NCBI RefSeq assembly: GCF_046533075.1
Contig: NZ_JAJQRB010000001.1
Location: 1 to 62,166, forward strand
Reading direction: 5' to 3'
Length of the DNA: 62,166 bases
Source of the DNA: Treponema primitia
GTDB lineage: Bacteria > Spirochaetota > Spirochaetia > Treponematales > Breznakiellaceae
Part shown: positions 21,959 to 61,236 of the stretch, in pieces
How the letters are laid out: each line of letters begins with the position of its first letter
Numbering within the stretch: the stretch's first letter is position 1
Notes under the pieces: model-generated
Database searches by the model: none
What the model was told of the DNA's origin: nothing
What the model saw: the letters and a program-made list of their open reading frames with translations, nothing else
Position numbers and translations under genes: made by a program

Positions 21959-21973
21959 TCGTAAAATATTTCT

Positions 21974-23086
21974 TTAAAACCGCAGCCGTACCAGGGCTGT
22001 AACCAGCAGCCGCGTTCCTGTTCTTTCCGGTCCCAGCTCACCGGGGCTGCTATCGGCAAGTACGGCCTTGTCTAAAGGAACCTGGGCGGAGATGGAGAGG
22101 CTCATGCCCTGGAAGATTTCGTAGTCCATGCTCAGGGTGGGCGAGAAGGAAAGGTCGTCCAGGGCGGCGGCGCAGGCGAGGCTGGCTGAGGTATAGTCGT
22201 TGAAGCGGTAACGAAAGAGGGCGTAGAGATAGTTTTGCTGTTGGAGGGCGAAGATACCCGAGGCGGTGGAAGAATCGCTGCCGTTGTAAAGGTATTCCGT
22301 AAGAACATAGCAGTCTCCGTCAAGGAACGAGTAGTCGAAGCCCGCGCCGGCGGACAGGCCGTCGATACCGGCAGCGGCATTGGGGTTCCAGGCGTAGAGG
22401 GCGTCCGCCACAAGACCTACGATTAAATCCGCCTTAACCGAAAGGCCCCAGCGGTGGATACCGGAGGAGCTCAGTACGGGCGTTTCGTAGGCGTAGAGGG
22501 CCTGGAGACTGGCGCGGCCCCAGTGATTTTCGGCGGAAAGGCCGGCAATAAGGCCGCCGCCATCCTGCTCAAAGGGGTTTCTTGGGGAGGCGGTGAAGAC
22601 CAGAAGCTTGGCTGAATCTGCAGGGTAGAGAGAACAGGCGGCGCCCAGGATGGCCCGCGGACGAGCGGTAGTTGAAAGGGGGCTGCGGGGGTTGAGGAAA
22701 TCCGAGGAGCCCCAGGCCTGGCCGTAGCCAAAGGGGAGCCGCATAAGACCGGCGTCAAGGCCCACGGATTCACCGTTCAGGCGGAAGTAGAGCCGTTCCA
22801 GTTCAATATAGGCGGCGTAGTTTTCTCCGGCGTCCATGCTGCCCTGGGAGGAGGCGCCTGAAGCGGCAATGAGGTTAAGGGCGCCGTAAAAGGCTCCCCT
22901 GTCCTTTACCTTTGCCTGCATTCTGATATTGGCGTATTCCTCAAAGCCGTATAGAAAGTCCGATGCGTTCCCCGCCCCCGCTCCAAGGGTAAGCTTGGAA
23001 TCCAGGATGCCGGAAAAGGTCTGCGCCCCGGCGGACAGAGGAAAAATTAACAGTAATACTGCGATAAAACGGATTGGTTTCATCAT
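21974..23086 (-). CDS. Putative outer-membrane beta-barrel protein (signal peptide, C-terminal Phe)
   Basis: 370 aa with a signal peptide (MMKPIRFIAVLLLIFPLSAGAQ). Alternating amphipathic strands and a terminal ...LVRLRF. Confidence 0.5.
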   Translation of the reverse strand: MMKPIRFIAVLLLIFPLSAGAQTFSGILDSKLTLGAGAGNASDFLYGFEEYANIRMQAKVKDRGAFYGALNLIAASGASSQGSMDAGENYAAYIELERLYFRLNGESVGLDAGLMRLPFGYGQAWGSSDFLNPRSPLSTTARPRAILGAACSLYPADSAKLLVFTASPRNPFEQDGGGLIAGLSAENHWGRASLQALYAYETPVLSSSGIHRWGLSVKADLIVGLVADALYAWNPNAAAGIDGLSAGAGFDYSFLDGDCYVLTEYLYNGSDSSTASGIFALQQQNYLYALFRYRFNDYTSASLACAAALDDLSFSPTLSMDYEIFQGMSLSISAQVPLDKAVLADSSPGELGPERTGTRLLVTALVRLRF

Positions 23087-23093
23087 TCATTCC

Positions 23094-23834
23094 TTACCGT
23101 TCCAGGTTCCGGGTGCTGAATACCGAATCCGGGATGGGACGATCCAGCACGACACTGCGGAGTATAAAGGTAGTTTTGCTTCCCCGGCGGAGCAGATCCC
23201 GCATCTCCGACTCCACGGGGAAACGGCGGCCGCCAAAATTTTCCGCACGGAGCAGGGTATACTCCTTGAGTTTTGAACCGGAAAGGGCGAAAAGCTCATA
23301 ATGGAGCAGATCGTTGTTTTCCTTGTCTATCCAAAGTTTTTGTTTGGGGTAACTTTCGGTGCGGCGTTTAGCGCTCAGCTCCAGGACCCAGGCGCCCCGG
23401 TTGTTCCACGTTTCAGAACCCGCGAGTACCGGATTGTAGCGGGAGGAGAGGCTTTCATTATCAATGGTATCCTCGTAGGAAAGATCCGAACCCATCATTG
23501 ATTCCTTGAGCATGTGTCCGGAAATAAGCATCACCTCCTCGTTGTCCGGGGAATAGACATAGAGCCTTAACCCCTTCTTGAGGTACTTAGTCCCCCTGTC
23601 CTCCGGGTTCTGAAATTCCACAAAGCTGTCCGAATTGCCCCGGGCATAGGCCTTCATGGTCTTAACATACTGCCTATTCTGATAGTCAATGATCATCTCA
23701 CCTTCATATTCAATGGTACTATAGACTTCGTTATCGTCCACCCGGCGCAGCAGTTCCGCCGCACTCGGCGCCGCCTGGGCAAATACCGAAAGGGAGCCGA
23801 AAAATAAAATAACCTGAAATAGTACTTTTCTCAT
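23094..23834 (-). CDS. LolA-like outer-membrane lipoprotein-sorting/carrier family protein
   Basis: 246-aa secreted protein. Genomic context with FtsX-type permeases and an ABC ATPase. Confidence 0.5.
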   Translation of the reverse strand: MRKVLFQVILFFGSLSVFAQAAPSAAELLRRVDDNEVYSTIEYEGEMIIDYQNRQYVKTMKAYARGNSDSFVEFQNPEDRGTKYLKKGLRLYVYSPDNEEVMLISGHMLKESMMGSDLSYEDTIDNESLSSRYNPVLAGSETWNNRGAWVLELSAKRRTESYPKQKLWIDKENNDLLHYELFALSGSKLKEYTLLRAENFGGRRFPVESEMRDLLRRGSKTTFILRSVVLDRPIPDSVFSTRNLER

Positions 23835-23875
23835 AACAAACCTCCAATTTGCATCCGCAATTTTATAACCCCATC

Positions 23876-25150
23876 CTAGCTCCGCAGGGCTTCCACGGGT
23901 TCCACAAAGGCGCTCCGTAAGGATGGTATCAGCGTACAGATGGAAGTAATTACCACGCCGAACAGGAACCCTTGCAGCAAAATTAATGGGGAGAATTCCA
24001 GGAATATGGTACCCGACATGGGGAAGTCCTTCATGCTTCCGCCGGTCATGGTACTGAAATCAAAGGGGAAGAATGAGCCGATCAGGGTGGTGATCCCTCC
24101 GATCAATACCCCCGCCAGGGAACCGGCTATGCTGAGGAATATGGCCTCGAAGAAAAACACCGTAACTATTTCAGCGCGGGTCATCCCAAGGGAACCCATC
24201 ATACCTATTTCCTTGATCCGTTCGTGGATGATCATCACCACCGTATTAACGATAAGAAAGCTCGCCACAATAAGGAATACCAGGTAGATGATTATGTAGA
24301 TCCCCATGCTCTGCTGCATCATTGCCACAAAGTAATTATCACGCCAGTCCCGTACCACATTCCGATCCCCAATTAAATTCTTAAGCGCCGCAGCAATTGT
24401 ATCGCTCTGGTTTTCCCGTTCTCCATAGATGAAAAGCTGCTGTGTGCCATCCCCCAGGACCAGGAGCTGCTGGAGCCGCTCAAAGGAAACGATGATCACC
24501 CCCTCGTCATACTTTCGGTAATCAAATTCAAATATGCCGGTAATCTCGGGACTCCATATCTTGTCGGAAAATTGGGCGGAGACCGTTTTGAGGGGAATAC
24601 GGTCCCCAATCCTGAGCCCCGCCTTTCGGGCCAGAGCGGTTCCTATGGCACAGCCTTTGCTTCCCGGTTCGGGATACCGGCCTTCCACAAGGCCGTTGGT
24701 CCGGTCTGAAAGGTTAAAATAGTTTATCTGCGCTTCCTTTTCCATTTCAATTCCCCAGAGCAGGGCGTGTTTCACCGTACTGTTCTGCAGGGTCGCATAG
24801 GCGCTGATCCGGGGAAATGCGGCTTTTACACCGGGGATGGCCTTTGCAGCCTCCGCCAATTCTGCGGCGCTTTTACCGTCCTCCACCGGGTACTGTACCG
24901 GGTAGTATTCCTGTTCCGCCTCATACTGGGCCGACACCACGCTGACATGGCCGGTTTCAAAAACCTGAACCACTTCGTTGATGCTCCGTATCATGCCGTC
25001 CCCCATGGCCTGCATGACGATGGTAAAAAACACCGCCAGACCCACTGCGGTAATGCAGAGCGCGGTCCGCCTGATATTCCGCCATATGTTCCGGTATGCA
25101 ATGATCAGGAGGGTTCCGGTCCCTCCTCTTCCGTATTCTGTCGTATTCAT
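23876..25150 (-). CDS. ABC transporter permease, FtsX/MacB family
   Basis: 424 aa with an N-terminal TM helix, a large periplasmic domain and a C-terminal 3-TM FtsX domain. Confidence 0.8.
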   Translation of the reverse strand: MNTTEYGRGGTGTLLIIAYRNIWRNIRRTALCITAVGLAVFFTIVMQAMGDGMIRSINEVVQVFETGHVSVVSAQYEAEQEYYPVQYPVEDGKSAAELAEAAKAIPGVKAAFPRISAYATLQNSTVKHALLWGIEMEKEAQINYFNLSDRTNGLVEGRYPEPGSKGCAIGTALARKAGLRIGDRIPLKTVSAQFSDKIWSPEITGIFEFDYRKYDEGVIIVSFERLQQLLVLGDGTQQLFIYGERENQSDTIAAALKNLIGDRNVVRDWRDNYFVAMMQQSMGIYIIIYLVFLIVASFLIVNTVVMIIHERIKEIGMMGSLGMTRAEIVTVFFFEAIFLSIAGSLAGVLIGGITTLIGSFFPFDFSTMTGGSMKDFPMSGTIFLEFSPLILLQGFLFGVVITSICTLIPSLRSAFVEPVEALRS

Positions 25151-25159
25151 GTTTTTCTC

Positions 25160-26890
25160 CTATTCAAACCGCAGACTTTCTGTTACCGGCATTTTCAGAG
25201 CCCGTTTGACCGGCAGAAAAGCCATAAGAGAAGAAAGGATTGTGGCGACAACACCGGACAGAAAAATTACCGGTACATTCCAGGCGGATTTAAAACTCGC
25301 GGCGATACGGTATCCAAAATCCCCTCCCATTTGATCGCTCACGGCGGAATAATCGATCCCGTATTTTATCATGGGTATATTGATAAGGCAGCCCAGGATT
25401 ATCCCGAAAACGGAACCTAAAAGCCCTACCATACCCGCTTCCATCATGTAGGTTCCAATGAGTTGTCCATCGGTCATGCCCATGGCCCGCATCATCCCTA
25501 TTTCCCGGGTCCGTTCCAGGATCGCCAAAAGCATGGTATTGGCTATCCCCAGGAAGGAAAGGATGAAAAGGAGAATTACTATTATCCGGGATGAAATATC
25601 ATCTCCCTTGGAAACGGCGATATAATCGGCGGCGTAATCCAGCCAGCCGAATACTCCAAGTTCCGGGGAAAGTCCGGAGGGAATAGCCGCGGACAGAAAG
25701 GCGGTAATTGTTTCGGATGATTCACTCTTAAGCGGCAGCCGGGAATCGTCGGCGTTTTTTTCCCGGATAAGAAGTTCCGTAACCCGGCCTTCCAGCATAA
25801 GACCCGATTCATCCTGTAACACATCCATGGGCAGGTATCCCACATTATTATTGTTTTTCGGGTTCGGAGAATTTATCATCCCCACAAGCACCGCGTCGAC
25901 AAGCTGGTTCACATGACGTACGGCTCCGGTATAGTCGATCCTGATCAGGGAGACGAGAATTGGGTCCAACAGGGCCGGATCATCCGAGCTTAGGTAATAG
26001 ACGCCGGTAAGGGGATCAAGCTCGTAGGCCGAAAGCAGGACGCGCCGTTCTCCATCGTTCAGAAGGGGGGCAATATCATTGTCGTACCTATCCTGACGTA
26101 TCGAATCCGGCGCAGCTTTTATGTCCAGCACGGTGGATATACGCAGATCCATCCTTCCCGTTGCGGCCAGTATGTTCCAGCATCTTTCAAGATCCTCCGG
26201 GGGAAGGTCCTTTTTTATAACCAGTCTGACATCCCCGGCGGCAATTTTATCCCCAAGGTCGTACATCCCATGTTTTTTTTGAACCAACTCCTCATACAAG
26301 CCGGTGATAAAGGCACGGTCCGCCTCATCGGACACCGGGGCAAGGTATTCGTTCTCCAGTTCCGACCGGGTAGGCCGCTGGGGAACACCAGCCTTTATTT
26401 TCTGGGCCGTCATGGACCCCAGGGCAATCTCAAAGGCGCCGGGTTTTATATACCTGCCCGCATCCGTATATGTTGTATACCGCAGCAAGTTTGCTTCCGC
26501 AGCGGGATCGCAGGCGATAAACTGCATGGGGGCGGAACCGAACTCCGAATAGAGGGTGCCGGTAAAAACAAACCGGGGGGCGCTGTCATAACCCGCCTTG
26601 TCCAATGCCGCAGCGTACTGTTCCCAATTACTAAAACTTTCGTACATGGGCAGCTCATCCTTCTTATCAAAATAGGCTTTTGTCTGGAGTTTAGCGGCGC
26701 CGCTCTCGTAGTTAACGATATTACGCCGGGAATCCAGGTTCATCCCGAGGATCCAGCCGTCTATGAAGATATAGAGACCCACGCTTACGGTTACCGCCAG
26801 AACCGTGATGATGGTCTTAACCTTATGCCGGAAGAGATTCCTCCATGCTATACGTTTTATTTCTACTGCGGTAGAAAAAATACCACTCAT
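25160..26890 (-). CDS. ABC transporter permease, FtsX/MacB family (large periplasmic domain)
   Basis: 576 aa with the same architecture as the neighbouring permease. Overlaps the ATPase gene. Confidence 0.75.
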   Translation of the reverse strand: MSGIFSTAVEIKRIAWRNLFRHKVKTIITVLAVTVSVGLYIFIDGWILGMNLDSRRNIVNYESGAAKLQTKAYFDKKDELPMYESFSNWEQYAAALDKAGYDSAPRFVFTGTLYSEFGSAPMQFIACDPAAEANLLRYTTYTDAGRYIKPGAFEIALGSMTAQKIKAGVPQRPTRSELENEYLAPVSDEADRAFITGLYEELVQKKHGMYDLGDKIAAGDVRLVIKKDLPPEDLERCWNILAATGRMDLRISTVLDIKAAPDSIRQDRYDNDIAPLLNDGERRVLLSAYELDPLTGVYYLSSDDPALLDPILVSLIRIDYTGAVRHVNQLVDAVLVGMINSPNPKNNNNVGYLPMDVLQDESGLMLEGRVTELLIREKNADDSRLPLKSESSETITAFLSAAIPSGLSPELGVFGWLDYAADYIAVSKGDDISSRIIVILLFILSFLGIANTMLLAILERTREIGMMRAMGMTDGQLIGTYMMEAGMVGLLGSVFGIILGCLINIPMIKYGIDYSAVSDQMGGDFGYRIAASFKSAWNVPVIFLSGVVATILSSLMAFLPVKRALKMPVTESLRFE

Positions 26891-27573
26891 GATTTTACCT
26901 GCTCTTTTTCTATCTGCCCGTCCCGTATCAAAATTACCCGGCGCGCAAAATCCATAACCATATTGTCATGGGTTGAAAAGATAAAGGTGGTTCCTTCAAT
27001 TTGATTAAGGCGGAGCATAATTTCCAGAATCTCCCGCCCGGTCTTTGAGTCCAGGTTCGCCGTGGGCTCATCCGCTAGGATGATGCTGGGACGCTTCACC
27101 AGGGCTCGGGCTATTGCCACCCGCTGCTGCTGCCCCCCGGACATCTCCTTGGGTTTACGGTTCCCCATGCCCTCAAGACCGACCTCCAGAAGCACCTTTT
27201 CTGTTCTTTCTTTGATTTCCTTTTTATCAATCCCCAGCAGGGTGAGGGGGAAGGAAATATTCTCCGTCACCGAAAGAACCGGTATAAGGTTATAGGCCTG
27301 AAAGATAAAACCAATACTGCTGCGCCTGAGCAGGGCGAGCTGTTTTCTTGAGAGAGCCGCCATGTCCTGCCCTCCTATATACATGGCGCCCCCCGTAAGG
27401 GTGTCCAGACATCCGGCCAGGTGGAGGAAGGTTGATTTTCCGCTCCCCGACGGACCTGCGACGGCGGCAAATTCCCCGCCCTGAAATTCCAGGCTTACCC
27501 CCCGCAGGGCGTGTACTTCAATCCCGTTCAGGGAATAATCCTTCACCACGTTTTCCGCTTTTATTACCGTCAT
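26887..27573 (-). CDS. ABC transporter ATP-binding protein (LolD/MacB-type)
   Basis: Walker [10 protein letters not shown], signature [15 protein letters not shown] and Walker B ILADEPT. Confidence 0.92.
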
Positions 27574-27648
27574 TAGGTATCTCCTTTAAAATAAATGTTA
27601 TATTTATATAACATTATAGGCCATCCTTTCACTGAAGTCCAGTGAAAT

Positions 27649-28731
27649 CTATTTTTTTAGATCCCGCTGCAGCTCCGATAGGGCCTGTAATCCAAATACA
27701 TCCTTGGTTTTAAGTTCCTCGGCAATTGAGTTGGGAACCAGCATCATGGAGTTCCCCGCCTTAAGACCTTCGTTCAATATGGAAAGAATTTTAAGCTTCA
27801 TCGCCGGTTCATTTTTAGCGTAGACTTGAACCGCTTCCTCCAGCTTTTTGGCAATCTCAATTTCCGCCTCCGCCAGGAGAACCCGGCTTTTCTTCTCCCG
27901 TTCCGCCTGAGCCACCCGGGAGAGAGAGTCCTGGAGGGCGGCGGGGATCTGCACATCCGTAATTTCAATATGCTGAACCGTGATACCCCAATCGGTGGTC
28001 TTCTTGTCCACCTCACCCTGAATCTGCCGGGCGATAATCTCCCCGTGCTGTAAAAAGGTACTAAGGTCATGGCCGGAAATAGCGTTTCTGAGCGCGGTTT
28101 TGGAGGACAGAATTACTGCGTCAAGGTAATTTTCCAGTTCCAGGACAGCCTTTTCCGGGTCCCAGACCAGCCAGAAACAAAGGGCGTCCACCGTAACGGT
28201 CACCGAATCCATGGTGAGGGTCGCCTGGGCGGAAAAATCCGTAACCCGTATCCGCAGATCCACTACCTGGGCCACCCGGTCCGCCAGGGGAACCAGCACA
28301 AAGAGCCCCGGCCCCCGGACCCGGTGAAACCTTCCGAAGCGCAGCACGATGGCCCGTTCCCACTCTTCAAGCTTCTGAACCGCCGGGACGATAAGAACCG
28401 CCAGGGCGGCAAATATAACAGGCATCGCAAGCCCAGGCCGGCCTGCGATGGCGGCGGAACAGGAAAGCAGCAGGGCGATCTTTATCCCGGCGCTCCACCG
28501 GGGCCAGAGTATCATCAGGAAGATTGCGGTCAGGGGAACACCGGCCAAAATGCCCAGTTCAAAAGGCGCGGGCAGTTCACTCCGAAGGACGAGAACGGCG
28601 ATCACAAAAACAATCAGGATCACTAAAAGGCTTATCCCCACGCCATTGAAGAAAAAATCCCGCCGCTTTTCCGGCCGGGGCATGTTTTTTATCAGGAGTT
28701 TCTTTTCCTTTTTTTCAGCCTTCATCAACAT
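27649..28731 (-). CDS. SPFH/band-7 (stomatin/prohibitin-like) domain membrane protein
   Basis: Multi-TM N-terminal region followed by an SPFH domain and a coiled-coil tail. Confidence 0.75.
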   Translation of the reverse strand: MLMKAEKKEKKLLIKNMPRPEKRRDFFFNGVGISLLVILIVFVIAVLVLRSELPAPFELGILAGVPLTAIFLMILWPRWSAGIKIALLLSCSAAIAGRPGLAMPVIFAALAVLIVPAVQKLEEWERAIVLRFGRFHRVRGPGLFVLVPLADRVAQVVDLRIRVTDFSAQATLTMDSVTVTVDALCFWLVWDPEKAVLELENYLDAVILSSKTALRNAISGHDLSTFLQHGEIIARQIQGEVDKKTTDWGITVQHIEITDVQIPAALQDSLSRVAQAEREKKSRVLLAEAEIEIAKKLEEAVQVYAKNEPAMKLKILSILNEGLKAGNSMMLVPNSIAEELKTKDVFGLQALSELQRDLKK

Positions 28732-29132
28732 CCTCCTAAATCAGAATAATCCCGCAGCATTTCTAAAAGGGAGGTTTTCGAGACTCCCAGGTTTTCAAAT
28801 TCCTGAATAAACCGGGTAAGAACCTCCCGGATTTTCCGGTCCCGGGCATCCTCCTCCGGGACCGGCTTCCTGTCGGAGATGAAGGTACCGCTCCCCACCT
28901 GGGTGGAAAGTATCCCCCGGATTTCAAGTTCGTTATAAGCCTTGGCTATGGTATTCGGATTGATTCGAAGCTCCACCGCCAGGGCGCGGATGGTAGGGAG
29001 CCTATCCCCGCTCTTCAGTCTCCCTGATAAGATGGCGTACTCAATCTGCTGGATGATCTGCCGGTAAATCGGCGCCCCATTGGCGTTATCCAGGGAGAAA
29101 CTAATACCCGAAGGGATAATTGTACTATTCAT
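28725..29132 (-). CDS. GntR-family transcriptional regulator (HTH only, short)
   Basis: GntR winged-HTH PIYRQIIQQIEYAILSGRLKSGDRLPTIRALAVELRINPNTIAKAYNELE. Confidence 0.8.
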   Translation of the reverse strand: MNSTIIPSGISFSLDNANGAPIYRQIIQQIEYAILSGRLKSGDRLPTIRALAVELRINPNTIAKAYNELEIRGILSTQVGSGTFISDRKPVPEEDARDRKIREVLTRFIQEFENLGVSKTSLLEMLRDYSDLGGC

Positions 29133-29190
29133 CTAATACAATTGTAAATGAACTAGTACAATATGTCAAGTGAATTATTGTTTTTTTGAA

Positions 29191-30492: not shown

Positions 30493-30586
30493 AATTTTAT
30501 TATTATTCCCATTTACCCCGCTGTCAATTCATGGCTTGACACTAAAACGGGGAATTCGGTAGTATATTTCCGTTACCCTAGTTCAC

Positions 30587-30668
30587 GCGGCCATGGTGGA
30601 ACTGGTAGACACGCCAGCTTGAGGTGCTGGTGCCGAGAGGTATGGAAGTTCGAGTCTTCTTGGCCGCA
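30587..30668 (+). tRNA. tRNA-Leu (anticodon GAG), long variable arm; CCA not encoded
   Basis: Acceptor stem GCGGCCA/TGGCCGC. Anticodon stem CCAGC/GCTGG with loop TTGAGGT, a long variable arm, and T-arm GGAAGTTCGAGTCTTCT. Confidence 0.85.
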
Positions 30669-30675
30669 ACGAATG

Positions 30676-30702
30676 CCCCGCTGAAAAGCGGGGTTTTTGT
30701 TT
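30676..30702 (+). terminator. Rho-independent terminator after tRNA-Leu (CCCCGC-tgaaaa-GCGGGG-TTTTT)
   Basis: Perfect 6-bp GC stem followed by a T-tract. Confidence 0.75.
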
Positions 30703-30710
30703 GAACCGTT

Positions 30711-30730
30711 CCAAGAAGACTCGAACTTCC
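30711..30730. repeat. Inverted copy of the tRNA-Leu T-arm (CCAAGAAGACTCGAACTTCC)
   Basis: Exact reverse complement of 30645-30664. Confidence 0.8.
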
Positions 30731-30824
30731 GGAGGGCGCGCCGAGTGAATACGAGGAAAAGCGCGCATGGATGCGCGCGTCAGCGCCCGGAGCTGGCCCG
30801 GAAGCCGAGAACAGGATGTTCGAT

Positions 30825-30888
30825 GCTGGAGGGTTCGAGTCTTCTTGGCCGCAACGAATGCCCCGCCTATTTGGCGGGGTTTTTTTAT
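30825..30888 (+). repeat. Direct duplicate of the tRNA-Leu 3' half plus a variant terminator (attL/attR-like remnant)
   Basis: GCTGGAGGGTTCGAGTCTTCTTGGCCGCAACGAATGCCCCGCC-tattt-GGCGGGG-TTTTTTT. The variable arm is deleted relative to the intact tRNA. Confidence 0.8.
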
Positions 30889-30953
30889 AGCCTCACGGAA
30901 GCCTTTTTCGAGGGCCTTGAAGAAGTTGGAAAAGGGGTTTATAGTTTGTATTT

Positions 30954-31463
30954 ATGGCATCATTTATTGGTTACCATGGGACTGATGAATATGGGGCTAG
31001 AAAAATAGAGGAGCGCGGGTTTGAAGATTCGCCTTCTGAAAGTTGGTTAGGGCCGGGTATCTATTTTTTTGAGACCCAAGGGGTTTTTGATGGAATAGAA
31101 GCGGCAGAATGGTGGGTTAAAACCTACAAAAAGTATCCCCGATGGGTTATACTAAAAGCGGAGATTAATTCTGTTGCTGTTATGGATTTGTTTGGTTCAA
31201 AAATCGACAGAGCAAAATTTGGTAGCATAAAACAAAAATTGCTTGAAAAACATCTTGCTTCCGGAGGTAAGGAAATTGACTTTGAACTTAAAACCGTATT
31301 TATGGCCATCAACAGAAAAGTCGATATAATCCGATGTCTAGTCGATGCCGCACGGTTGGACAAATTTGTCAATTTTGTTGTGGGTTTTCCGCAAATACAA
31401 ATTTGTGTCACAAAGTCGGGTTGCATAAGCAACTTTCAAAAGTTTAATGAAGGGATTCTATAA
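30954..31463 (+). CDS. DUF3990-like protein (GYHGT ... LGPGIYF motifs)
   Basis: 169 aa. MASFIGYHGTDEYGARKIEERGFEDSPSESWLGPGIYFFET matches the YHGS/…FGxGFYxT N-terminal signature of DUF3990 as recalled from memory. AT-rich region. Confidence 0.55.
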   Translation: MASFIGYHGTDEYGARKIEERGFEDSPSESWLGPGIYFFETQGVFDGIEAAEWWVKTYKKYPRWVILKAEINSVAVMDLFGSKIDRAKFGSIKQKLLEKHLASGGKEIDFELKTVFMAINRKVDIIRCLVDAARLDKFVNFVVGFPQIQICVTKSGCISNFQKFNEGIL

Positions 31464-31612
31464 TGGACGATACGCTGTTTGAAGAAATTCTCAATGAAAT
31501 TGATTTGATGTCCTCTGAAGAATATTGGGCTTTTTATCGGGAAGCTAAGAAGTTACCTGATTTTAACCTGCTTATTCCGGCTGATTTGAACACAAATTCC
31601 GGCAACACTTGA
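31463..31612 (+). CDS. Small ORF (49 aa) translationally coupled to the DUF3990-like gene (TAATG overlap); 3' end runs into the IS21 terminus
   Basis: MDDTLFEEILNEIDLMSSEEYWAFYREAKKLPDFNLLIPADLNTNSGNT*. The stop codon lies inside the IS21 terminal repeat. Confidence 0.4.
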   Translation: MDDTLFEEILNEIDLMSSEEYWAFYREAKKLPDFNLLIPADLNTNSGNT

Positions 31613-31736
31613 ACATGAAACCGGAACATTTGAACATCGTACCTACTCCAGGACAAGGTATACCACAGGCCGGTAAAATTGTGCAAGCATGTTTTAGCGG
31701 ACTCTTATGCGCCGTAGGCGCCGGTCAAAGGAGGGG

Positions 31737-32480
31737 CTAATCAGGGTCCCTGTCGGCGAGAGTTTTTCTCATGGAATCCCCCGAAATGTTGAACTTATGG
31801 GCGTTGTGGACTACCCGGTCCAGGATGGCGTCGGCTAGAGTGGGGTCCGGAAATAGGCCGTGCCAAGCGGAACAGGGAAGCTGTCCTGAGATAATCGTCG
31901 AGGCGGCATCGTAGCGCCGTTCAAAGAGCTCCATGATTTCATGACTCTCCTCCAGGGTGAACTTCCGCAGCCCCCAGTCGTCCAGAATGAGCAGCGGAAC
32001 TGTCGCGAGGCGGTTACGAAGCAGGGTGAACCGGCCCTCCATCTGGGCATCGGAAAGCTGTACGAAGAAGTCGGGAACCCTGATATAGGTCACCGGGGTA
32101 CCTTGGTAACAGGCGGCGCGGCCGATGGCGCTGACAAGGTAGGTCTTGCCGACCCCGGTAGGACCCGTGATAAGGATATTCTGTTTGTTCCTGAGGTATG
32201 ATCCTTCGCACAAACGCTGTACATCGGGTTTTGAAATGCCGTGTTTTCCCTGGTAGTCAATGTCCTCAATGACCGCCGGGAACCGGAAGCCCGCCTGGGT
32301 CACCAGTCGGTTAATCCGCTTGGAGCGTTTGGCAAGCCATTCGGCCTCGACCAGAAGTGCCAGCCGTTCGTCGAAGGGGAGCGTGTCCGGACCCGGCTGT
32401 TCCTGCTGTTCGATGAAGGCGGCGGCCATGGCCGACAGGTGGAGGTCGTGCAGTTGATTTATCGTTGTTTTGTTAAGCAT
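31737..32480 (-). CDS. istB: IS21 helper ATPase IstB
   Basis: Walker A ILITGPTGVGKTYLVSAIG and Walker B LLILDDWG. The probable start is MLNKTTINQ at 32480. The longer annotated ORF upstream is an out-of-frame read-through of the istA 3' end. Confidence 0.85.
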   Translation of the reverse strand: MLNKTTINQLHDLHLSAMAAAFIEQQEQPGPDTLPFDERLALLVEAEWLAKRSKRINRLVTQAGFRFPAVIEDIDYQGKHGISKPDVQRLCEGSYLRNKQNILITGPTGVGKTYLVSAIGRAACYQGTPVTYIRVPDFFVQLSDAQMEGRFTLLRNRLATVPLLILDDWGLRKFTLEESHEIMELFERRYDAASTIISGQLPCSAWHGLFPDPTLADAILDRVVHNAHKFNISGDSMRKTLADRDPD

Positions 32481-34117
32481 TGAACGCCTCCTCAGCCAGG
32501 GATGGACCGTAGTATTCCTGTCCCCGGATGTTTTGATGGGTAATAGGGGGTGCAGCCTGCTCCTCCTGTTTCTTAAACAGCCGTTCAAAATACTTATGGG
32601 TATAGATGTTGGCGGCCAGGGCTTGCTCACAGACTTGTTCCATGTATTGCCGGGGTGCGTTCTGCCCCATGCGGAGGATACCGGCGCAGGTTTTAAATGA
32701 CTGTTCCGGATGTTCCCGCTGTTCCATAAGCCAGGTGATATAGGCCTCCGTTTTCGGCCCCGTCTTGGCCGCCCAGGAGCGGAACCGTTCAGGCGACCAG
32801 TCGGCGACCGCCTTGTGTTTCTCGGGCATATGCTCAAATCGGTGGGTTCTTTCCAGTCTTGGTTGAAAACATCACTTAAGATCATTTTTCAAGAAAGTTG
32901 TATTATTTTTCATTCAGCTTTTCTCGGTAATCAACTAACTTTGGGAAGAACCAATCGGTGGTATACCGGCTGCGCTTCTCGTAATTACGGATATGGCAGG
33001 AAATGCGTTCCCCCTCCGAAAACACCTCAATAGTGCGTATTGTAGCCCGTATTTCGACCTGTTTCCCCGCAAACGTGTAGGGCACGCTGTAGTAATACGA
33101 ATCGAACTGGACATGATAGTCGAAGCCGACCTTAGCCAGCTTATGTTCGGCGTACTCGTACCGGGACGGGGGAAGCGCCCGTAACTGCCCTTTCTCAAAT
33201 TCCAAGAAAGCCTCCTGCCGATTCCCCGGGATTTTTGCGAACGGCTGAGTGTTGAGGACTTCGAGCTCCGCCCTCACCGCCTTCCACAGTTCCGGGAAGG
33301 AAAGAAACTGCCGGTCCCGCAATTTCGCAATGATTCTGCGTTCCACGATTTGTACACCGGTTTCTACCGGCGCCTTGTCCCGGGGAGCTCTGGACCGGGC
33401 CGGGATGATGACCGCCCCATAGTACCGGGCCAGCTCGTGATAGGTCTTGTTAAGATCCGGGTCGTAGTATTTTGGTTTGATGACTGCCGTCTTGGTATTA
33501 TCTGGCACAAGAATCGCTGCGGCCCCGCCGTAGTACTCAAAGGCGTTTACATGGGCCGCGCTCCACGATTCCTGTCCCATGTTCAGGAACGGTTCCACAT
33601 ACAGGTAAGAACTGGCCGGGAGGTCTGCTACAAACAGGTATACTTTTACTGCTTCCCCCCGAGAATTGGTATACTGCATGGTCAGCCCTGCCCAGTCAAC
33701 CAGCATTCGTTCCCCGGCTTTGTAGGATTTATGCATATACACCTCATTCTGTTTACGGAACTTCCGATACCGCTCGCAGAATGGAGAAAGCATATATCCG
33801 TTGGGGTGGGCGGTTTTGTACTCCTCCCACAGGAGGGTTAGGGTGACCCCCTTCTTCTGCATTTCCCGGTGGACCCATTCCAGGTCCGGTTCGTCCCGCT
33901 GCGCCCCCGCCTCTTTGACCGCCGGGTACAGGACCTTGCTCAGCTCCTTGTTCCGTATGGCCTTAAGGTCGATGATGCCCGCCTCCCGGGCCCGCGCCAG
34001 AATGGCGTTCACATTCCCCAGGGAGCGGCCGGTGGCCCCGGCTATTTCCCGCTGTGTCATTCCTGCGTCCTTGAGCCGAAGGATTTCCCGTGCTTTTTCC
34101 ATCTCTACTCTCCTCAT
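32473..34117 (-). pseudogene. istA: IS21 transposase IstA, disrupted: N-terminal part (32903..34117) and C-terminal part (32473..32829) lie in different frames and are separated by a ~106-bp insertion
   Basis: N-part has the HTH (MTQREIAGATGRSLGNVNAI) and a DDE core. C-part has MPEKHKAVADWSPERF...HPEQSFKTCAGIL, the conserved IstA C-terminus, in another frame. Confidence 0.8.
32847..32952. mobile_element. MITE-like ~106-bp insertion inside istA with imperfect TIR (GGTTCTTYCC...) and flanking 9-bp direct repeat AATCGGTGG
   Basis: Direct repeats aatcggtgg at 32838-32846 and 32953-32961. The AT-rich insert starts GGTTCTTTCCAG and ends ...TTTGGGAAGAACC. Confidence 0.55.
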
Positions 34118-34671
34118 GATGTCGCTCCTTGGTTTGTTCCCGGAAGCGTACGATATTTTGGAGGGTTTGATGTTCAAATGTTCCGCAAGCCTGTTCAAGT
34201 GTTCCGCAAGCCTGTTCAAGTGTTCCGCATGGATGTTCAAATGTCGCCGCAAGCGTGTTCAAGTGTTGCCGTTTTTCTGTTCAAGTATTTCCGCAAGCCT
34301 GTTCAAATGCGCCGGAATTCATGTTCAAATGTCGCCGCAGAATGCAGTCATTATTAATGAAGCGTACCGGCGCGGGGACATTGAGACGAATATCATCCAT
34401 AACATCAAACCCTTGGCAGAGCATAGCAAAGAGCGCGGCGTCCTCACTGTAAAGGAAGCCACCCAGGTCCTTAATGAGCAAACATGGAAATTGGTATGGT
34501 CCGATCAGTGGATGCATTACATCTATAATTTGACGGCGGCTCAGACGAGGATGCGCTTCAGACTCCTTGTTAACACCGAATGGGATACTTAAACGACACT
34601 ACAGCATAATGTAAGGGTTTACATTAAAGCATAGAATATCGCCCCAAAGGGGTAGTGCTGATAGGTTTGCT

Positions 34672-34965
34672 TTACTTTTGCGCTTCAATGATAACTGTAT
34701 CAATTCCAGAGGCCACTTTTTCAAGAATATCCAACTTAATTGCCTCTAAATGCTCTATTTGGGAAGGTTTTAAGCCCTGTGCCGCCGTCTCATCGTAAAA
34801 AAGCTGATAAGCTTCGATGTCCAAAGCCTCAGCAAGCTTCATGATAAAGGCGAAAGAGGGTGTTCTTCTCCCACTCTCGATCTGCCGGATATAGGTATGG
34901 GCCGCCTCACATCGTTCTGCCAGTGTTTTTTGGGAAATTCCTCGCTTTTTACGCCATTTTTTCAT
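34672..34965 (-). CDS. XRE-family (Cro/C1-type HTH) transcriptional regulator
   Basis: HTH ISQKTLAERCEAAHTYIRQIESGRRTPSFAFIMKLAEAL. The start is probably MKKWRKKRG. Confidence 0.7.
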   Translation of the reverse strand: MKKWRKKRGISQKTLAERCEAAHTYIRQIESGRRTPSFAFIMKLAEALDIEAYQLFYDETAAQGLKPSQIEHLEAIKLDILEKVASGIDTVIIEAQK

Positions 34966-35151
34966 ATTGTGAATAAATACACCGTTCAAATCCATATTTT
35001 GTATTCTATGAGCTTCTACTTTTTATCCATAGAGTAGCTTGACGTTTACATTATAGATATAATATGATTACATCGTGCTTACAATTTTATGGAAAATTAA
35101 AGGATTTTTTGAAAATTTGTGTAGTCTGCTGGACTACAAAAGGAGTTTTTT

Positions 35152-35790
35152 ATGAAAAAAAGAGAACTTTTATTGTCAATTCTCGGCATAGTACTGACAT
35201 TGGGGTTAATGCTTACTGGGTGTGATAATCCAGCTGGAGATAATGGTAACGGCGGTAACATTAAATATACGGTAACTTTTAATGCAGATGGTGGAACTGT
35301 TAATCCAACAAGTAAAGAAATTATTGCCGGTGATACTGTTGGCACTTTACCAACACCAACAAAACCCGGATATACTTTTGGAGGTTGGTTTACAGCTCGA
35401 AATGGAAGTGGAGTCGCTTTTACAACAACAAGCACTGTTACCGCTGCTATAACACTATATGCAGAATGGATAGTGATTATACAAAATACATATTATGGAG
35501 AATTTGATGGTATAAGTTCAACTGCGTATAATTTAATAATGGCCCATCAATATGAATGGGATGCAGTAAAATGGCATAATGCGATTATGAATAATCCTTG
35601 TTATCCAAGTAGTAAACAGTATCAAGCTGGTATGTCAATTAGCGAATTAAGATCTTTTTTAAATGGAAAAGACATAATCGGATCAACTCAAGAAACGATA
35701 ATAACTAATTTAACTAGAAACGGTGCTGCGATTCTTATTTATCTTGCGGTTAATGATTATTACTATTATGTATATGCAATACGGGAATAA
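35152..35790 (+). CDS. Lipoprotein with Listeria-Bacteroides (InlB B-repeat, Flg_new) repeat
   Basis: Lipobox LMLTGC followed by YTVTFNADGGTVNPTSKEIIAGDTVGTLPTPTKPGYTFGGWFTARNGSGVAFTTTSTVTAAITLYAEW. AT-rich. Confidence 0.7.
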   Translation: MKKRELLLSILGIVLTLGLMLTGCDNPAGDNGNGGNIKYTVTFNADGGTVNPTSKEIIAGDTVGTLPTPTKPGYTFGGWFTARNGSGVAFTTTSTVTAAITLYAEWIVIIQNTYYGEFDGISSTAYNLIMAHQYEWDAVKWHNAIMNNPCYPSSKQYQAGMSISELRSFLNGKDIIGSTQETIITNLTRNGAAILIYLAVNDYYYYVYAIRE

Positions 35791-35940
35791 TGTAGTTACA
35801 TAAGAATATGTCAAGGGAACCTCTAAAAACTCAAAATAAAAGTCAAATACCTTATCTTTTATAGAGGTTTTGCGGACGTGTCAGAAATAGGACCTGTTGA
35901 CAAAGGGAATCTATTAATAGATATGGTATAATTCCTATCG

Positions 35941-36171
35941 GTGGATACAGCCATGATGGGTAGGAAAAGCAAACAGCTATGCATGATAATGATAGACATG
36001 GAGGAACTCATACCGAAAAATCATCTGGTAAGAAAGATAATAGAAGCAATAGATTTTGATTTTATATATACCGAAGCGGCAGAGTATTATTCAAATATTG
36101 GCCGTCCATCAATAGACCCTCTAGACTTCCCCCGGTTTGGTAGACGGTCCAATCCGATAATCATCCGGTAA
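35941..36171 (+). pseudogene. N-terminal fragment of an IS5/IS1182-family transposase (InsH_N/DUF772-like)
   Basis: …LIPKNHLVRKIIEAIDFDFIY…YYSNIGRPSIDP… then truncated. Confidence 0.6.
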
Positions 36172-36179
36172 GAGAAAAG

Positions 36180-37139
36180 ATTATGCGCCTGGTGGTGGTG
36201 GATGAACAGCACCGCTTCGGGGTAACCCAGCGCCAGGCCATCATGTCCAAGGGGGATCACCCGGGCCTCCTGATGATGAGCGCCACCCCTGGACCCTGGC
36301 GTTGACGGTTTTTGGGGACCTGGACGTTTCGGTAATCCCCGACATGCCCCCGGGCCGGAAACCCGTCAAAACCCACCTGGCAAAGGAGTCCAGCGAGGCC
36401 CGGGTCTACGACTTTGTCCGCAAGGAACTGGCCGCAGGGCATCAGGCCTATTTTGTCTATCCCCTCATAGAGGCGGACGGTAACAAGGCCCTCAAGGACG
36501 CTGAGTCCATGGCGGAGCGGCTGGCAAAAAAGGTTTTCCCCCAATACCCCACAGCCCTGGTCCATTCAAAGCTGGATGAAGAAGAAAAGCGGCGGGCCAT
36601 GGAACGGTTCCGCCTGGGGGAAATCCGCATCCTGGCGGCCACCAGCGTGGTGGAAGTGGGGGTGGATGTACCCAACGCCACCTGCATGGTCGTGGAACAC
36701 GCCGAGCGTTTCGGCCTTTCCGCCCTGCACCAACTCCGGGGCCGGGTCGGCCAGGGGGAAGCTCAGTCTTACTGCTTCCTGGTCTACTCCGATGCGCCCG
36801 ATGAGGCGGCGGGGGGGGCGGAGCCGAAGCTGCCGGGACGGTCCTGACCGATGACGGCAAGACCCGGCTCAAGGTGATGCTGGAAAACAACGATGGCTTT
36901 GTCATCGCCGAGGAGGACCTGAAGCTCCGGGGCCCCGGCCAGATTGCGGGCATCGAACAGCCGGGCTACCTATCCTTAGGGATCGCCGACCCCATACGGG
37001 ACGCCGAGGAACTTGCCCGGGCCCGGATCGACGCCTTCGCCATGCTGGAGGAGGACCCGGGGCTGCTCCTGCCAGAACACCGCCGCATAGCCCAGGTACT
37101 GGAACGGGCGCCGCCCTTTGCGAACGTGGTGCTGTGAGC
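36180..37139 (+). pseudogene. recG: recG 3' fragment (C-terminal ~320 codons of ATP-dependent DNA helicase RecG) with at least two frameshifts
   Basis: Three successive frames carry [17 protein letters not shown], then DLDVSVIPDMPPGRKPVKTH…HSKL…QLRGRVGQG, then NDGFVIAEEDLKLRGPG…. Frameshifts occur near 36295 and in the G8 run near 36815. Confidence 0.8.
37087..37129 (+). repeat. recG 3'-terminus, copy 1 (ATAGCCCAGG-tactggaacggg-CGCCGCCCTTTGCGAACGTGG)
   Basis: Directly repeated, minus the 12-nt insert, at 40741-40771. Encodes IAQVLERAPPFANVVL*. Confidence 0.85.
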
Positions 37140-37187
37140 TATGCTTATCGGTAAGTGGATAAATTGGATCTAAAAGGAATACGCAGA

Positions 37188-40100
37188 ATGAAACAATTGT
37201 ATATTTTCCTTATTATTTTGGCTTTTTTGGAATTCTTTGGCTGTGTGAGCCAGAGTCGGGATACATCGGGGGACCTCACCTCTGGTGAACGGGGGCTGGA
37301 GGTGATTGTTGAAGGGGAAGCTGAACCTGATGTGGAAGTGTTTCTACAGTTAGGGCACGCAGGCGGGGCACTGGATGCAGCGTTTAGTCCTGATGAAAGC
37401 CACATTATTTCAGCCTCACAAGATACCACGCTGAAGCTATGGGATATCGCAACTGGACGTGAAATTCGGACGTTTTCCGGACATTCAGGCGGAGTACGGT
37501 CAGTTGCATATAGCCCTGACGGAAAGCTTATCGCTTCGGGGGCTTCTGATAAAACCACGAAGCTGTGGGATGCCGTAACCGGGCGTGAAATCCGAACTAT
37601 AACAGAAGATTCCTCCATAAGTTATGTGGCTTTTAGTCCTGACGGTAAATGGCTGGTTACAAAAAGTTCTAATAATACCACGAAACTATGGGATATCGCC
37701 AATGGACAGGAAATCAATGCTTTCAACGGTGTAGTGGAATTTAATCCCGGCTGGGACCAAATTGCCCAATGGGATAGGGATGGAAATATTACAATCCGGG
37801 ACATCACAAGCGACCGTGAAATTCGTATTTTTCCGGGATATTCAAAGGGCATTACCGCCCTCGCGTTCAGTACCGATGGGAAACAGATTGTCTCAAGTTA
37901 TGAGGATAGGACCGTAAAAGTATGGAATATCGAAAACGGGCAGGAAACTCAAAGCTTCGTAATAAAAAAGAAGCAGGGAGAAGGAACCGGCATGACGCCA
38001 ACCATAAGATGTGTGGCTTTTGCGCCTGATGGGAAACGAATTGTCACAGGAGATGATGATCGTAAAATGAAGCTATGGGATAATAGTCAGGAAACCCAGA
38101 CCTATGAAGGTCACTGGGTTACGATCGTGGATGCAAATGGAGGGGAGACATCAAGTGACACCGGGCATTTTAAACGGCTTCAATCAATTTCATTCAGTTC
38201 CGATGGACGGCAAATTCTTTCAAGAAGTGATGATAGGGTAATATGCTGGGATACAGACAGCGGCCGTGAAATAGCCAATTTTAAAATAGCCGACCAGATA
38301 GCTTCCATAAAATTCAGTGCTGATGAAAAAAAGATCATTACAGGAGATTTATTTGGGAATCTTGAGTTGTGGGATTTTATTGACGGACAAAAATTACAGT
38401 CATTCAAAAAAAGCATGGTAGGAATGTCAAGCGTCGCATTTAGCCCTGACGGTTCTCAGATTGTTTTTAGTTCATCGGATGATAACACGGTAAAATTTTG
38501 GGATATTACAGTCGGAAAGTTAATTCGATTTTTTTCAGGTATTAATAAATATGACAAGATTAAAGGGATACGGTCGGTAATATTCAGCCCCAGCGGCAAA
38601 CAAATTGCTACAGGATCTTTAGGAAATGTAAAGTTGTACGATGCCGCAACAGGAGAGGAAATTCGTGTTTTTTCCGGGCAAAATTGGCCAGAGTCCATTG
38701 CCTTCAGTCCGGACGGAACAAAACTCGTTTCAGCATCCGATGACGGTACAATAAAACTGTATGATGTTGTAACCGGCGGTGAAATTGGCAATGTGGTAAA
38801 AAGGAGCTTTACAGGGGAATATCGTATTTTTGCGGAACACCCGGATGAATCCGTTGTTACGGCGGCCTTTAGTATTGATGGCAAACAAATCCTTTCCTGC
38901 GGTTCCTCGGGCACAGTGAAAATATGGAATTCAGCCGATGGACGCGAAATTCGTTCATTTCAAGCAAGCGAGACAAATAGTTCCGGATTAAAGGATCTGC
39001 TGTTTTCTGCAGCCTTTAGCCCTGATGGAAGCCGGCTTGTTACGGGATCTCGTTATGGTACTGTTAATCTTTGGAATACCTCAAGTGGACAGAAAATACG
39101 AACTTTAGGGGATTTGAGTAATAGTATTTTCGCTGTGGAGTTCAGTCCCGATGGAAAAAAAATTATTGCAGGGGATTACAATGTCTTGAAATTATGGGAT
39201 GCGGAAACCGGCCAGATAATTCGGAATTTCTCCGGTCATTCCGGTTTTATTCATTCCATAGCGTTTAATCCCGGCGGGCAGCAAGTAGTTTCAATTTCAA
39301 GTGATGGTACCGCCCGCATTTGGAATATTGAATCCGGTAACGAAATTGTCAAATTAGTTAATTATGCAGGCAAGGATACCCAAATAACATCCGGCGGCCG
39401 CGGGCTTACGGTGGAATTAGAAGATCAGGTAGGCTCGGTGGACAGCGAATGGATTTCCGTTACCCCCGATGGCTATTATAATGCTTCGCCCCGCGGCGAC
39501 CATTACTTCAATGTCCGTATCGGTAATACTGTATCCGGCATAGATGCCTACCGATCGATCTTCTACAACCCCGATGTAGTCCGGGCTCGTCTGCAAGGAA
39601 GGCCTGATCCTGCCTCCAAGGGTAAGGTTACTATTCAGCAGGCCGGTTTATTCAGCCCCCCAATTATTACCATACAGGAACCAGGTGTAAATAATATTGT
39701 TACCACCGCTACGACAAATTTATCGGTCGTCATCGAATCCAGTCGGCAGCCTATCAGTACTATCAAACTCCTCGTGAACGGCAGACTTGTCGGGCGTGAT
39801 GAATTGATCGCCGTCACCGGAGGTAACCTTACCCCTGAGAGAGCCAGCCTGACCGTCACCGGCGGCCAAAGGGTCATAAATTTCCAGCTCCCGGTGGGCC
39901 TTGATCCCGGCCTTAACCGCATTGAGGTGGTGGCCTTTAACGGTTACTCGGACAGCCGGAAGTGGGTGGATATTACCCGGCAGACCCGGACCGGGGAGCA
40001 AGCTGCTCCTCCTAATCTGTGGATTCTTGCGGTGGGTGTGAATCAATATAGCAGTTCCCAAATCAACAGCCTGGATTACTGTGTTGCCGATGCACGGGAA

Positions 40101-40736: not shown

Positions 40737-40740
40737 AGCC

Positions 40741-40771
40741 CATAGCCCAGGCGCCGCCCTTTGCGAACGTG
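40741..40771 (+). repeat. recG 3'-terminus, copy 2 (ATAGCCCAGGCGCCGCCCTTTGCGAACGTGG), right boundary of the WD40-caspase cassette
   Basis: Encodes IAQAPPFANVAL* in the recG frame. Confidence 0.85.
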
Positions 40772-41139
40772 GCGCTCTAGCAGCCTGTTGCACTTGTAGG
40801 TTTTTTGCGCTTGAAGCCGCAAAAAACTTCGATTTATGGGCTGCTTACGGAGTTTGTAGGGTTGAAAAATTGCCAGATAGGCAATTTTTCTCGATTAATT
40901 GCGCGAAGCGCAACAAACTCCTAGGGGCTTACTTTTCTATCCTTAATCCCTCATTTTTGTATTCATCTATTGAACCATCAATGGTTAGCAAAATAAAATT
41001 ATTTCGTAGTGCTTCCCATACTAAAAAGCGGTCAAAGGGATCTCTGTGGTATAATGGTAAATGATAACTTGTAATTATATCAATGTTGTTTATTTCTTTA
41101 CATACATGCTCTTCTTGGCCGAAGAAAATGCCCCTTCAC

Positions 41140-59211: not shown

Positions 59212-59226
59212 TCTGGAGGTAAATTT

Positions 59227-61145: not shown

Positions 61146-61236
61146 ACATATCCCTTGAGAGATTTCAAAGGTTTAGCGCCACGGCTTGGAAATCTGGAAA
61201 TATTCGTCCAAAGTCTTGTAGAACTCTACGAGGGTA

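Follow-up and report, generated by a model that had tools for sequence, protein, structure and literature searches.

The tRNA-Leu(GAG) locus of Treponema primitia

The DNA analysed here, referred to as the window, is a stretch of 62,166 nucleotides (nt) from Treponema primitia (contig NZ_JAJQRB010000001.1, positions 1 to 62,166), and the present study focuses on a 185-bp unit found at the 3' end of its tRNA-Leu(GAG) gene. This gene is arranged divergently from a neighbouring gene coding for a solute-binding protein (SBP), which corresponds to NCBI MFP3040212.1 at 100% identity. Within the unit, the end of the tRNA gene and its terminator recur as a direct copy, and the two copies are separated by a short insert that starts with an inverted copy of the T-arm. 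The features of the locus are given below; the genomes used as reference are T. primitia ZAS-1, the nearest genome compared, whose SBP/tRNA DNA is 89.85% identical to that of the window, and L128, a metagenome-assembled genome (MAG) of another Treponema sp.

30536 to 30565, plus strand: candidate promoter-like site 5' of tRNA-Leu(GAG), TTGACA-18-TAGTAT, from a consensus scan; the region is kept in ZAS-1.
30587 to 30668, plus strand: tRNA-Leu(GAG), intact, without encoded CCA (ARAGORN; Rfam tRNA, 52.3 bits), identical in sequence to the ZAS-1 gene.
30649 to 30703, plus strand: DR1, first target copy, with T-loop (from T54), 3' strand of the T-stem, 3' strand of the acceptor, trailer ACGAAT, terminator 1 and T-run (repeat search; right end defined via homology to the L128 element).
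30675 to 30694, plus strand: terminator 1, GCCCCGCT-GAAA-AGCGGGG followed by a T-run (terminator scan; fold -20.0 kcal/mol, z -4.75).
30704 to 30730, minus strand: X', left end of the insert, an inverted T-arm copy (inverted repeats; 24/28 matched with one gap, perfect over the 20 nt at 30711 to 30730).
30731 to 30833, no strand assigned: S, a conserved, GC-rich, non-coding spacer (L128 homology and alignments).
30834 to 30889, plus strand: DR2, second target copy, from T54 to the end of the T-run, its tRNA part stopping at 30853 (repeat search, global alignment).
30860 to 30880, plus strand: terminator 2, GCCCCGCC-TATTT-GGCGGGG followed by a T-run (terminator scan; fold -18.6 kcal/mol, z -4.05).

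The repeat search returned a direct repeat of 54 nt (30648 to 30701 and 30833 to 30886), 83% identical and exact over its leading 34 nt, and global alignment of DR1 with DR2 gave 47/56 identical positions, the 34 exact nt starting from G53 (30648). Homology of the second copy begins at G53/T54 (30833/30834), 185 bp 3' of the first. An earlier interpretation made from the letters of the window (hereafter, the sequence-only reading) had described an intact tRNA-Leu(GAG) followed by a direct duplicate of its 3' half and a second terminator, and ARAGORN, Rfam, the repeat search and the terminator scan bear this out. Neither ARAGORN nor Rfam detects another tRNA at the locus, which excludes that the duplicate belongs to a second complete gene that had been missed. 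The duplicate itself, placed at 30825 to 30858, had been drawn too wide: the T-arm and the acceptor 3' end are there, but the supposed 3' side of the anticodon stem (TGCTGG, 30825 to 30830) scores at chance level (over the 102 nt that precede the second copy, the local score with the 5' part of the tRNA is 14, versus a shuffle mean of 14.3), and positions 30854 to 30859 are trailer, beyond the tRNA portion of the copy.

Both terminators consist of a GC-rich hairpin and a T-run, as is the case for intrinsic (Rho-independent) terminators. The compensatory change and the different loop that had been noticed between their stems were confirmed, but not the extra C-G pair, since each stem has 8 pairs and a single closing pair has changed (T:A on a GAAA loop in one, C:G on a TATTT loop in the other). 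Terminator 2 is nearest to the ZAS-1 terminator, GCCCCGCC-TAAT-GGCGGGG, and the ~14 nt that follow it in DR2 also resemble the ZAS-1 sequence.

The T-arm 20-mer has 3 matches in the window versus 0.00 expected. Control loci from other bacteria were obtained by scanning genome contigs with a 21-mer of the T-arm and acceptor; among the matches listed, they belong to Alphaproteobacteria and Lactobacillales, with no Treponema. A second copy of the 16-nt tRNA core, in either orientation, was present in 0/122 of these loci (slices of at most 8 kb, among the matches listed). In three of them (L085, L090 and L116), an inverted T-stem/acceptor 12-mer lies 2 to 2.6 kb from tRNA-Leu and may be part of another tRNA gene.

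Structure of the insert

The insert measures 130 bp (30704 to 30833) and is flanked by the direct duplication of ~55 bp. As a complete tRNA 3' end and terminator sit on its tRNA side, tRNA-Leu(GAG) stays intact and terminated. The inverted T-arm that the sequence-only reading had placed at 30711 to 30730 was recovered by the repeat search, forming with 30644 to 30663 a perfect 20-nt inverted repeat that brackets terminator 1. Judging from the sequence, the stretch 30704 to 30710 may continue the inverted arm, after a 4-nt gap, into the acceptor and trailer.

The inverted arm also faces the second direct copy. Positions 30711 to 30726 and 30833 to 30848 represent terminal inverted repeats of 16 perfect bp with 106 bp between them, and the arm pairs with the right-hand T-arm copy to close a hairpin of ~150 nt. 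Folded as single-strand DNA, the insert together with the right-hand T-arm copy forms one long hairpin in both T. primitia and L128 (z -4.3 and -6.2), and a second long hairpin is formed by the T-arm, the terminator and the inverted arm (z about -9). The spacer contains two smaller hairpins, namely, hairpin 1 (30761 to 30778, GCGCGCA-TGGA-TGCGCGC) and hairpin 2 (30809 to 30821, GAACA-GGA-TGTTC), and a YCCGGAG motif is present at both of its ends and in its middle in all versions of the element. A coding function was considered for the spacer and excluded, as 1- and 6-nt indels between the versions disrupt any frame.

Relatives lacking the insert

Both ZAS-1 (L001) and L002, a more distant metagenomic relative, keep the divergent order of SBP and tRNA-Leu(GAG), with a single tRNA 3' end, one terminator and an inverted arm in neither. 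The syntenic locus of these two genomes is an empty site, which the sequence-only reading had proposed to look for in related genomes. In ZAS-1, the tRNA gene is followed by a single GC-rich terminator. The DNA found 3' of tRNA-Leu(GAG) differs between the window, ZAS-1 and L002, and includes nifV and a nif cluster in ZAS-1. On the contigs of four further SBP homologues (P0003, P0005, P0006 and P0009), the tRNA is not present.

Recurrence beside tRNA-Leu(CAA) in other Treponema

A metagenome scan with a 27-mer of the spacer yielded one match, in L128 (44% GC); an earlier metagenome scan with a 39-mer of the tRNA had given none. Behind tRNA-Leu(CAA) in L128 come the trailer and terminator of that gene, then its own T-arm/acceptor strand in inverted copy, a homologous spacer and a direct repeat; architecture, order and orientation are those of the window. 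The insert is 126 nt long, versus 130 nt in the window. The direct repeat is perfect over 72 nt, from T54 to 16 nt beyond the T-run, while the inverted copy of the T-arm and acceptor comprises 13 + 7 matched bases around a small indel, and the terminal inverted pairing 10 + 7 bp with a bulge. Aligned with 30731 to 30833, the L128 spacer shows 87% identity over 45 nt, including 27 exact nt, and 68% overall; the identity of the window spacer to the two other versions amounts to 68% and 60%. The left boundary of the duplication is T54 in both species, and the right boundaries differ, which fits a fixed crossover point.

With regard to its surroundings, the L128 element occupies an intergenic region of ~420 bp between the core genes RecQ and ComM, its repeat ending 8 nt from the ComM stop codon, and neither an island nor an integrase was found near it. 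The tRNA-Leu(CAA) element is carried by three independent assemblies, identical save one single-nucleotide polymorphism, and is therefore not an assembly artefact. A related strain (L143/L144) harbours a diverged copy, with a spacer 81% identical, that adjoins ComM and has a full right-hand repeat. At this locus (L143, 12780 to 12945), the left-hand repeat is reduced to its last 24 nt and joined to unrelated DNA, and tRNA-Leu(CAA) is absent. Synteny is lost directly after the right-hand repeat in the window, and the break in L143 likewise falls at the edge of the element. The strain that carries the diverged element also possesses a tyrosine integrase (Phage_integrase and SAM-like domain) directly 3' of tRNA-Thr(CGT), at 6875 to 8613 of L143 and also in L144; a tRNA-Thr fragment was not detected in the portion of the L143 contig searched.

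The three versions differ in ways that preserve pairing. In the inverted arm, three paired positions differ between the species, and complementarity to the local tRNA is kept. Each of the three versions has hairpins 1 and 2 paired at 100%, and two compensatory pairs are seen per hairpin (GCGCGCA/TGCGCGC versus GCGGACA/TGTCCGC for the first, and GAACA/TGTTC versus GGCCA/TGGCC for the second).

A small insertion element as the preferred reading

With slightly better than even confidence, we regard the 185-bp unit as a small non-autonomous insertion element that entered the 3' part of tRNA-Leu(GAG) by site-specific recombination at the T-loop. This mode of entry fits because the left boundary is fixed at T54 and because a full replacement 3' end with its terminator lies on the tRNA side. 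The element would insert at the T-loop, its free form would carry the replacement tRNA 3' end and terminator, and a tyrosine-type recombinase would come from elsewhere, as the element has no open reading frame (ORF). The evidence points to an element that is mobile and aimed at tRNA-Leu genes. It agrees with the sequence-only reading, which saw a footprint of integration and excision, insofar as the repeats are of the type left by insertion at a tRNA 3' end; the inverted T-arm, however, is an integral part of the element, one of its ends, and not a by-product of excision. No comparable element was found in Rfam or in a limited literature search, which is no proof of novelty, and the element is apparently undescribed.

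A more specific role can be proposed for the inverted arm, although we hold it to be doubtful. The arm may be the targeting part of the element: paired with the right-hand copy, it would mimic the double-stranded T-arm region, acting either as a single-strand attachment (att) site comparable to the attP of CTX-phi or the attC of integrons, or as a base-pairing guide. A change in the arm would then retarget the element to another isoacceptor, a possibility raised by the existence of GAG and CAA copies for the tRNA-Leu isoacceptors.

Several observations weigh against the insertion element. ZAS-1, though without the element, carries the motif GTTCCAA on the minus strand at 9770 to 9800, 14 nt past its terminator stem (8/12 matched). 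The inverted arm of the window begins at this same offset, and, given this motif, part of the arm could predate the insertion. Of three tRNA 3' copies, more than one may be the native one: the second copy has a ZAS-1-like terminator, whereas a third, decayed copy (c3, found at the far end of the adjoining accessory tract and described below) has a ZAS-1-like trailer. We infer mobility from three sequence versions, single at each locus, that stem from two or three lineages of Treponema, and covariation based on three sequences is modest evidence. No recombinase gene linked to any copy was found, nor was an empty-site allele of the tRNA-Leu(CAA) locus. Lastly, direct repeats of 55 to 72 bp, perfect in L128, would need host-identical sequence in the free form, and a circle of ~185 to 200 bp is small as a recombination substrate.

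Alternative explanations

The compensatory changes in the two hairpins could also be read as the mark of a structured RNA or regulatory module maintained by the host at tRNA-Leu, such as a 3' external transcribed spacer RNA, a read-through sensor in which the arm pairs with either T-arm, or an antisense RNA. The strong and similar folds in two species, the stability of the sequence in three assemblies, and the position of the unit, always adjoining tRNA-Leu and in the same orientation, speak for such a module. Yet neither ZAS-1, the closest relative, nor L002 has the unit, and in L143 it is retained although the tRNA is gone. A strong terminator separates it from the tRNA, and a consensus scan found no promoter-like site inside the insert. 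Taken by itself, the spacer is no more stable than its shuffled versions (z -0.6 and -1.6), and it matches no Rfam family; nor does a function readily account for a terminator duplicated within a perfect 72-nt repeat. A tRNA-like RNA on the opposite strand was also considered; such a fold can form in L128, whereas the truncated acceptor prevents it in the window. We consider a host module unlikely.

The sequence-only reading had taken the repeats for attL/attR remnants of a degraded island. In this scenario, the unit would be what is left of a large island or prophage whose interior was deleted to ~130 bp, and would form part of the ~10-kb accessory tract located downstream. A tRNA 3' end repeated downstream of the gene and in its orientation, from the T-loop onwards, is what such an event leaves, the tract adjoins the unit and ends with the third fragment (41110 to 41134), and the site is empty in relatives. 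Against this, the interior is conserved elsewhere (27 nt exact, 60 to 81% overall, with compensatory changes) and recurs beside tRNA-Leu(CAA) at a locus free of any island, with near-equal size (126 versus 130 nt) and the same ends, an outcome on which independent deletions would not converge. The same duplication in relatives lacking the island had been named beforehand as grounds for giving up the island, and it was encountered in modified form, at the island-free locus of another species. Moreover, neither end of the 10-kb tract shows homology to the small insert. A decayed island boundary is therefore quite unlikely.

Searches for the enzyme or the parent of such an island gave no support either. 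A tyrosine-integrase pseudogene, which the sequence-only reading had proposed to look for nearby, was not found between the tRNA copies: neither a Phage_integrase nor a serine-recombinase domain occurs in 30880 to 41145 (Pfam on long ORFs and six-frame scans of the rest), and elsewhere in the window there is no integrase among the long ORFs scanned, the unscanned portion from 11.4 to 23.9 kb being collinear with ZAS-1 core genes. The sequence-only reading had proposed the spacer (30731 to 30824) as a query for attP regions of phages or integrative and conjugative elements. Viral scans with the core of the spacer, the T-arm and both junctions returned only an unrelated provirus end (L003) and GC-rich chance matches without tRNAs, and blastn against phages and plasmids gave no matches. 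The L003 sequence is a low-GC viral contig with a partial tRNA-Leu (8480 to 8543, anticodon arm to acceptor end) that has the same T-arm/acceptor sequence and is probably the att site of that provirus.

The forward-inverted-forward order might also have arisen locally, with no mobile element involved, if replication switched templates at the hairpin of the terminator (an event known as inverted triplication or tandem inversion duplication). Three T-arm copies of alternating orientation and a palindromic terminator at the first junction are in keeping with this, and inverted triplication with short-inverted-repeat junctions has been described as a replication error (PMC4689423). An inverted triplication would derive all DNA between the copies from the duplicated region, but the tRNA is not the source of the 102 nt that separate the inverted copy from the second direct one. 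These 102 nt are kept in other species beside a different tRNA, and the same boundaries recur independently. The recurrence of the spacer largely refutes template switching, which we consider very unlikely. Finally, it is hardly probable that the 16-bp perfect inverted repeats around 106 bp (30711 to 30726 and 30833 to 30848), a length within the size range of known invertible segments, are the sites of an inversion switch (inverton) flipping the ~100-bp spacer, since the spacer lacks a promoter-like site, shows one orientation in all versions and in all three tRNA-Leu(CAA) assemblies, and has no invertase gene nearby.

The accessory tract and other features of the window

The DNA that follows the second copy is a mosaic of ~10 kb, the main features of which are listed below.

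30890 to 41109, no strand assigned: accessory mosaic tract of ~10 kb, without homology to the ZAS-1 or L002 flanks (Pfam/PHROGs hits).
About 31574 to 34337: IS21-family element, with istA at 32903 to 34252 and istB at 31737 to 32885, and several TGTTCAAATGT-like repeats at each end.
36302 to 37137: 3' half of recG, a frameshifted pseudogene in two frames (Helicase_C, then RecG_dom3_C), GC 60 to 67%, directly before the WD40-caspase gene.
37155 to 40736: WD40-caspase gene (1193 aa), coding for WD40 repeats in two stretches and, at the C-terminus, a caspase domain (Peptidase_C14).
41110 to 41134, plus strand: c3, a direct but decayed repeat of the 3' end of the tRNA with its trailer, TCTTCTTGGCCG-AAGAAAAT-GCCCC (ZAS-1 alignment).

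The GC content of the tract varies from 32% to 67%, versus ~52% in the flanks. Besides the features listed, it holds a gene for a 169-aa protein, an HTH_3 gene, a low-GC Flg_new gene and an ORF of 137 aa. The 169-aa protein matches phrog_14664 only; its earlier assignment to DUF3990 found no confirmation in Pfam, and a viral search with it returned no relatives. A further candidate, the N-terminus of an IS5/IS1182-type transposase, had been proposed for the ORF at 35956 to 36171 (…LIPKNHLVRKI…GRPSIDP…), and was discarded as Pfam gave no match. The best homologues of the recG fragment are short RecG fragments from termite-gut metagenomes, mostly about 70 to 84% identical.

The fragment c3 is identical to the tRNA 3' end and trailer of ZAS-1 at 24/26 positions, with a local score of 40, whereas 100 simulated windows reached maxima of 23.7 +/- 1.7, the largest being 29. 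The copy runs from T60 into the terminator stem, where it breaks off 5 nt short of the stop codon belonging to a FecR-family gene. The homologues found for this FecR protein, at most 69% identical and mostly about 50 to 65%, do not anchor the DNA to the right of c3 as core. For an island of ~10.2 kb, c3 would provide the displaced tRNA fragment, but no recombinase domain was detected. The accessory tract announced by the sequence-only reading is real, with c3 at its far end, but it is separate from the small element, which is not part of it, and it goes back to older or independent events.

In other respects, the window contains a second region of ~7.2 kb (21946 to 29188, between SBP and an epimerase gene) that is missing from ZAS-1, in which only a few nt separate the two genes. 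Its products are a GntR regulator, an SPFH/Band 7 protein, an ABC ATPase and two FtsX/MacB-type permeases. Near the end of the window, the region 59000 to 61200 is low in GC (about 36%), and its ORFs at 59227 to 60390 and 60387 to 61145 are without Pfam match.

Significance

Islands and prophages classically insert at tRNA genes, and, to our knowledge, every well-described tRNA-integrating element brings its own integrase and kilobases of DNA. If mobile, the element described here, ~130 bp long and devoid of ORFs, would be the smallest known tRNA-integrating element, and one that rebuilds the 3' end and terminator of its host tRNA gene, carries an inverted copy of its own target and is found at two different tRNA-Leu genes. 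It would then offer a simple natural system for the recognition of T-arms by recombinases, including the question of whether the target is set by a folded hairpin or by base pairing. For genome annotation, the case shows that a tRNA fragment adjoining a tRNA gene need not mark where an island ends: the nearest fragment here belongs to the small element, and the tract has a decayed boundary of its own.

Comparison with known systems

Genomic islands are recognised by the Islander procedure from an intact tRNA gene, a cognate 3' fragment downstream in the same orientation and an integrase between them, inverted fragments being rejected as noise (PMC4383910). Crossover in the T-loop or T-stem and restoration of the split tRNA by sequence borne on the element are established (PMC4383910; bioRxiv 10.1101/2020.11.02.365908), and the canonical sublocations of crossover are the anticodon loop, the T-loop and the asymmetric 3' end (bioRxiv 10.1101/2020.11.02.365908). 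With islands and prophages set into tRNA genes by tyrosine integrases, tandem arrays included, the present element shares the tRNA 3' target, the restoration of the gene from the element side, a displaced fragment downstream in direct orientation and a repeat that starts in the T-loop. Fragments of the required kind are the second copy (30833 to 30853) and c3 (41110 to 41134), both downstream and on the plus strand, and the crossover positions are G53/T54 in the second copy, T60 in c3 and T54 in the L128 repeat. The unoccupied site is provided by ZAS-1 and L002. In contrast to these islands, the insert is 126 to 130 bp long and has no ORF or integrase, its flanking repeats span the terminator (55 to 72 bp), and an inverted copy of the target lies inside it.

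Two families of non-autonomous elements also serve for comparison. Cis-mobilisable elements (CIMEs) are flanked by att sites and mobilised by the integrase of another element; they are kilobases long and represent deletion derivatives of identifiable integrative and conjugative elements. The unit resembles them by its att-like flanking repeats, the absence of a recombinase of its own and its location at a tRNA 3' end, but it has no known parent, is about ten times smaller and displays a hairpin architecture. MITEs (miniature inverted-repeat transposable elements) resemble the unit in size, terminal inverted repeats, lack of ORF, intergenic position and hairpin. Unlike MITEs, whose flanking repeats measure 2 to 10 bp, the element has flanking repeats of 55 to 72 bp and terminal repeats that copy the local target and differ between hosts. 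MITEs are also dispersed in many copies per genome and have a parent IS with the same ends, while a single copy of the present element was seen in the 62-kb window and at each further locus.

Integron attC sites are imperfect palindromes of ~57 to 141 nt with the core R'' RYYYAAC and R' GTTRRRY. The hairpin of the element, with 138 to 150 nt (z -4.3 and -6.2), is at or above the upper size limit of attC, and its termini (CTCGAAC...GTTCGAG in the window, CTTGAAC...ATTCAAG in L128) depart from the consensus at positions 1 and 4 of R'' and at positions 4 and 7 of R'. In terms of intI, attI or a cassette array, no integrase was found in the window or in L140, and the copies are single.

The folded attP of CTX-phi is formed by two inverted target-like sites ~90 nt apart, its target being dif, its recombinase XerCD and its carrier a single-strand DNA phage. 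The element differs from CTX-phi in that its target is a tRNA T-loop and not dif, and it has no XerCD-type sites and no phage genes in or beside it. As in CTX-phi attP and attC, inverted target-like copies lie ~100 nt apart, their fold would mimic a double-stranded target, and the stems are imperfect with bulges; the spacing between the inverted arm and the second copy, 102 to 106 nt, is close to that of the phage. After integration, a folded attP is predicted to leave the order site, cargo, inverted site, spacer, site, and the order of the element is the same, which we regard as a lead rather than a test.

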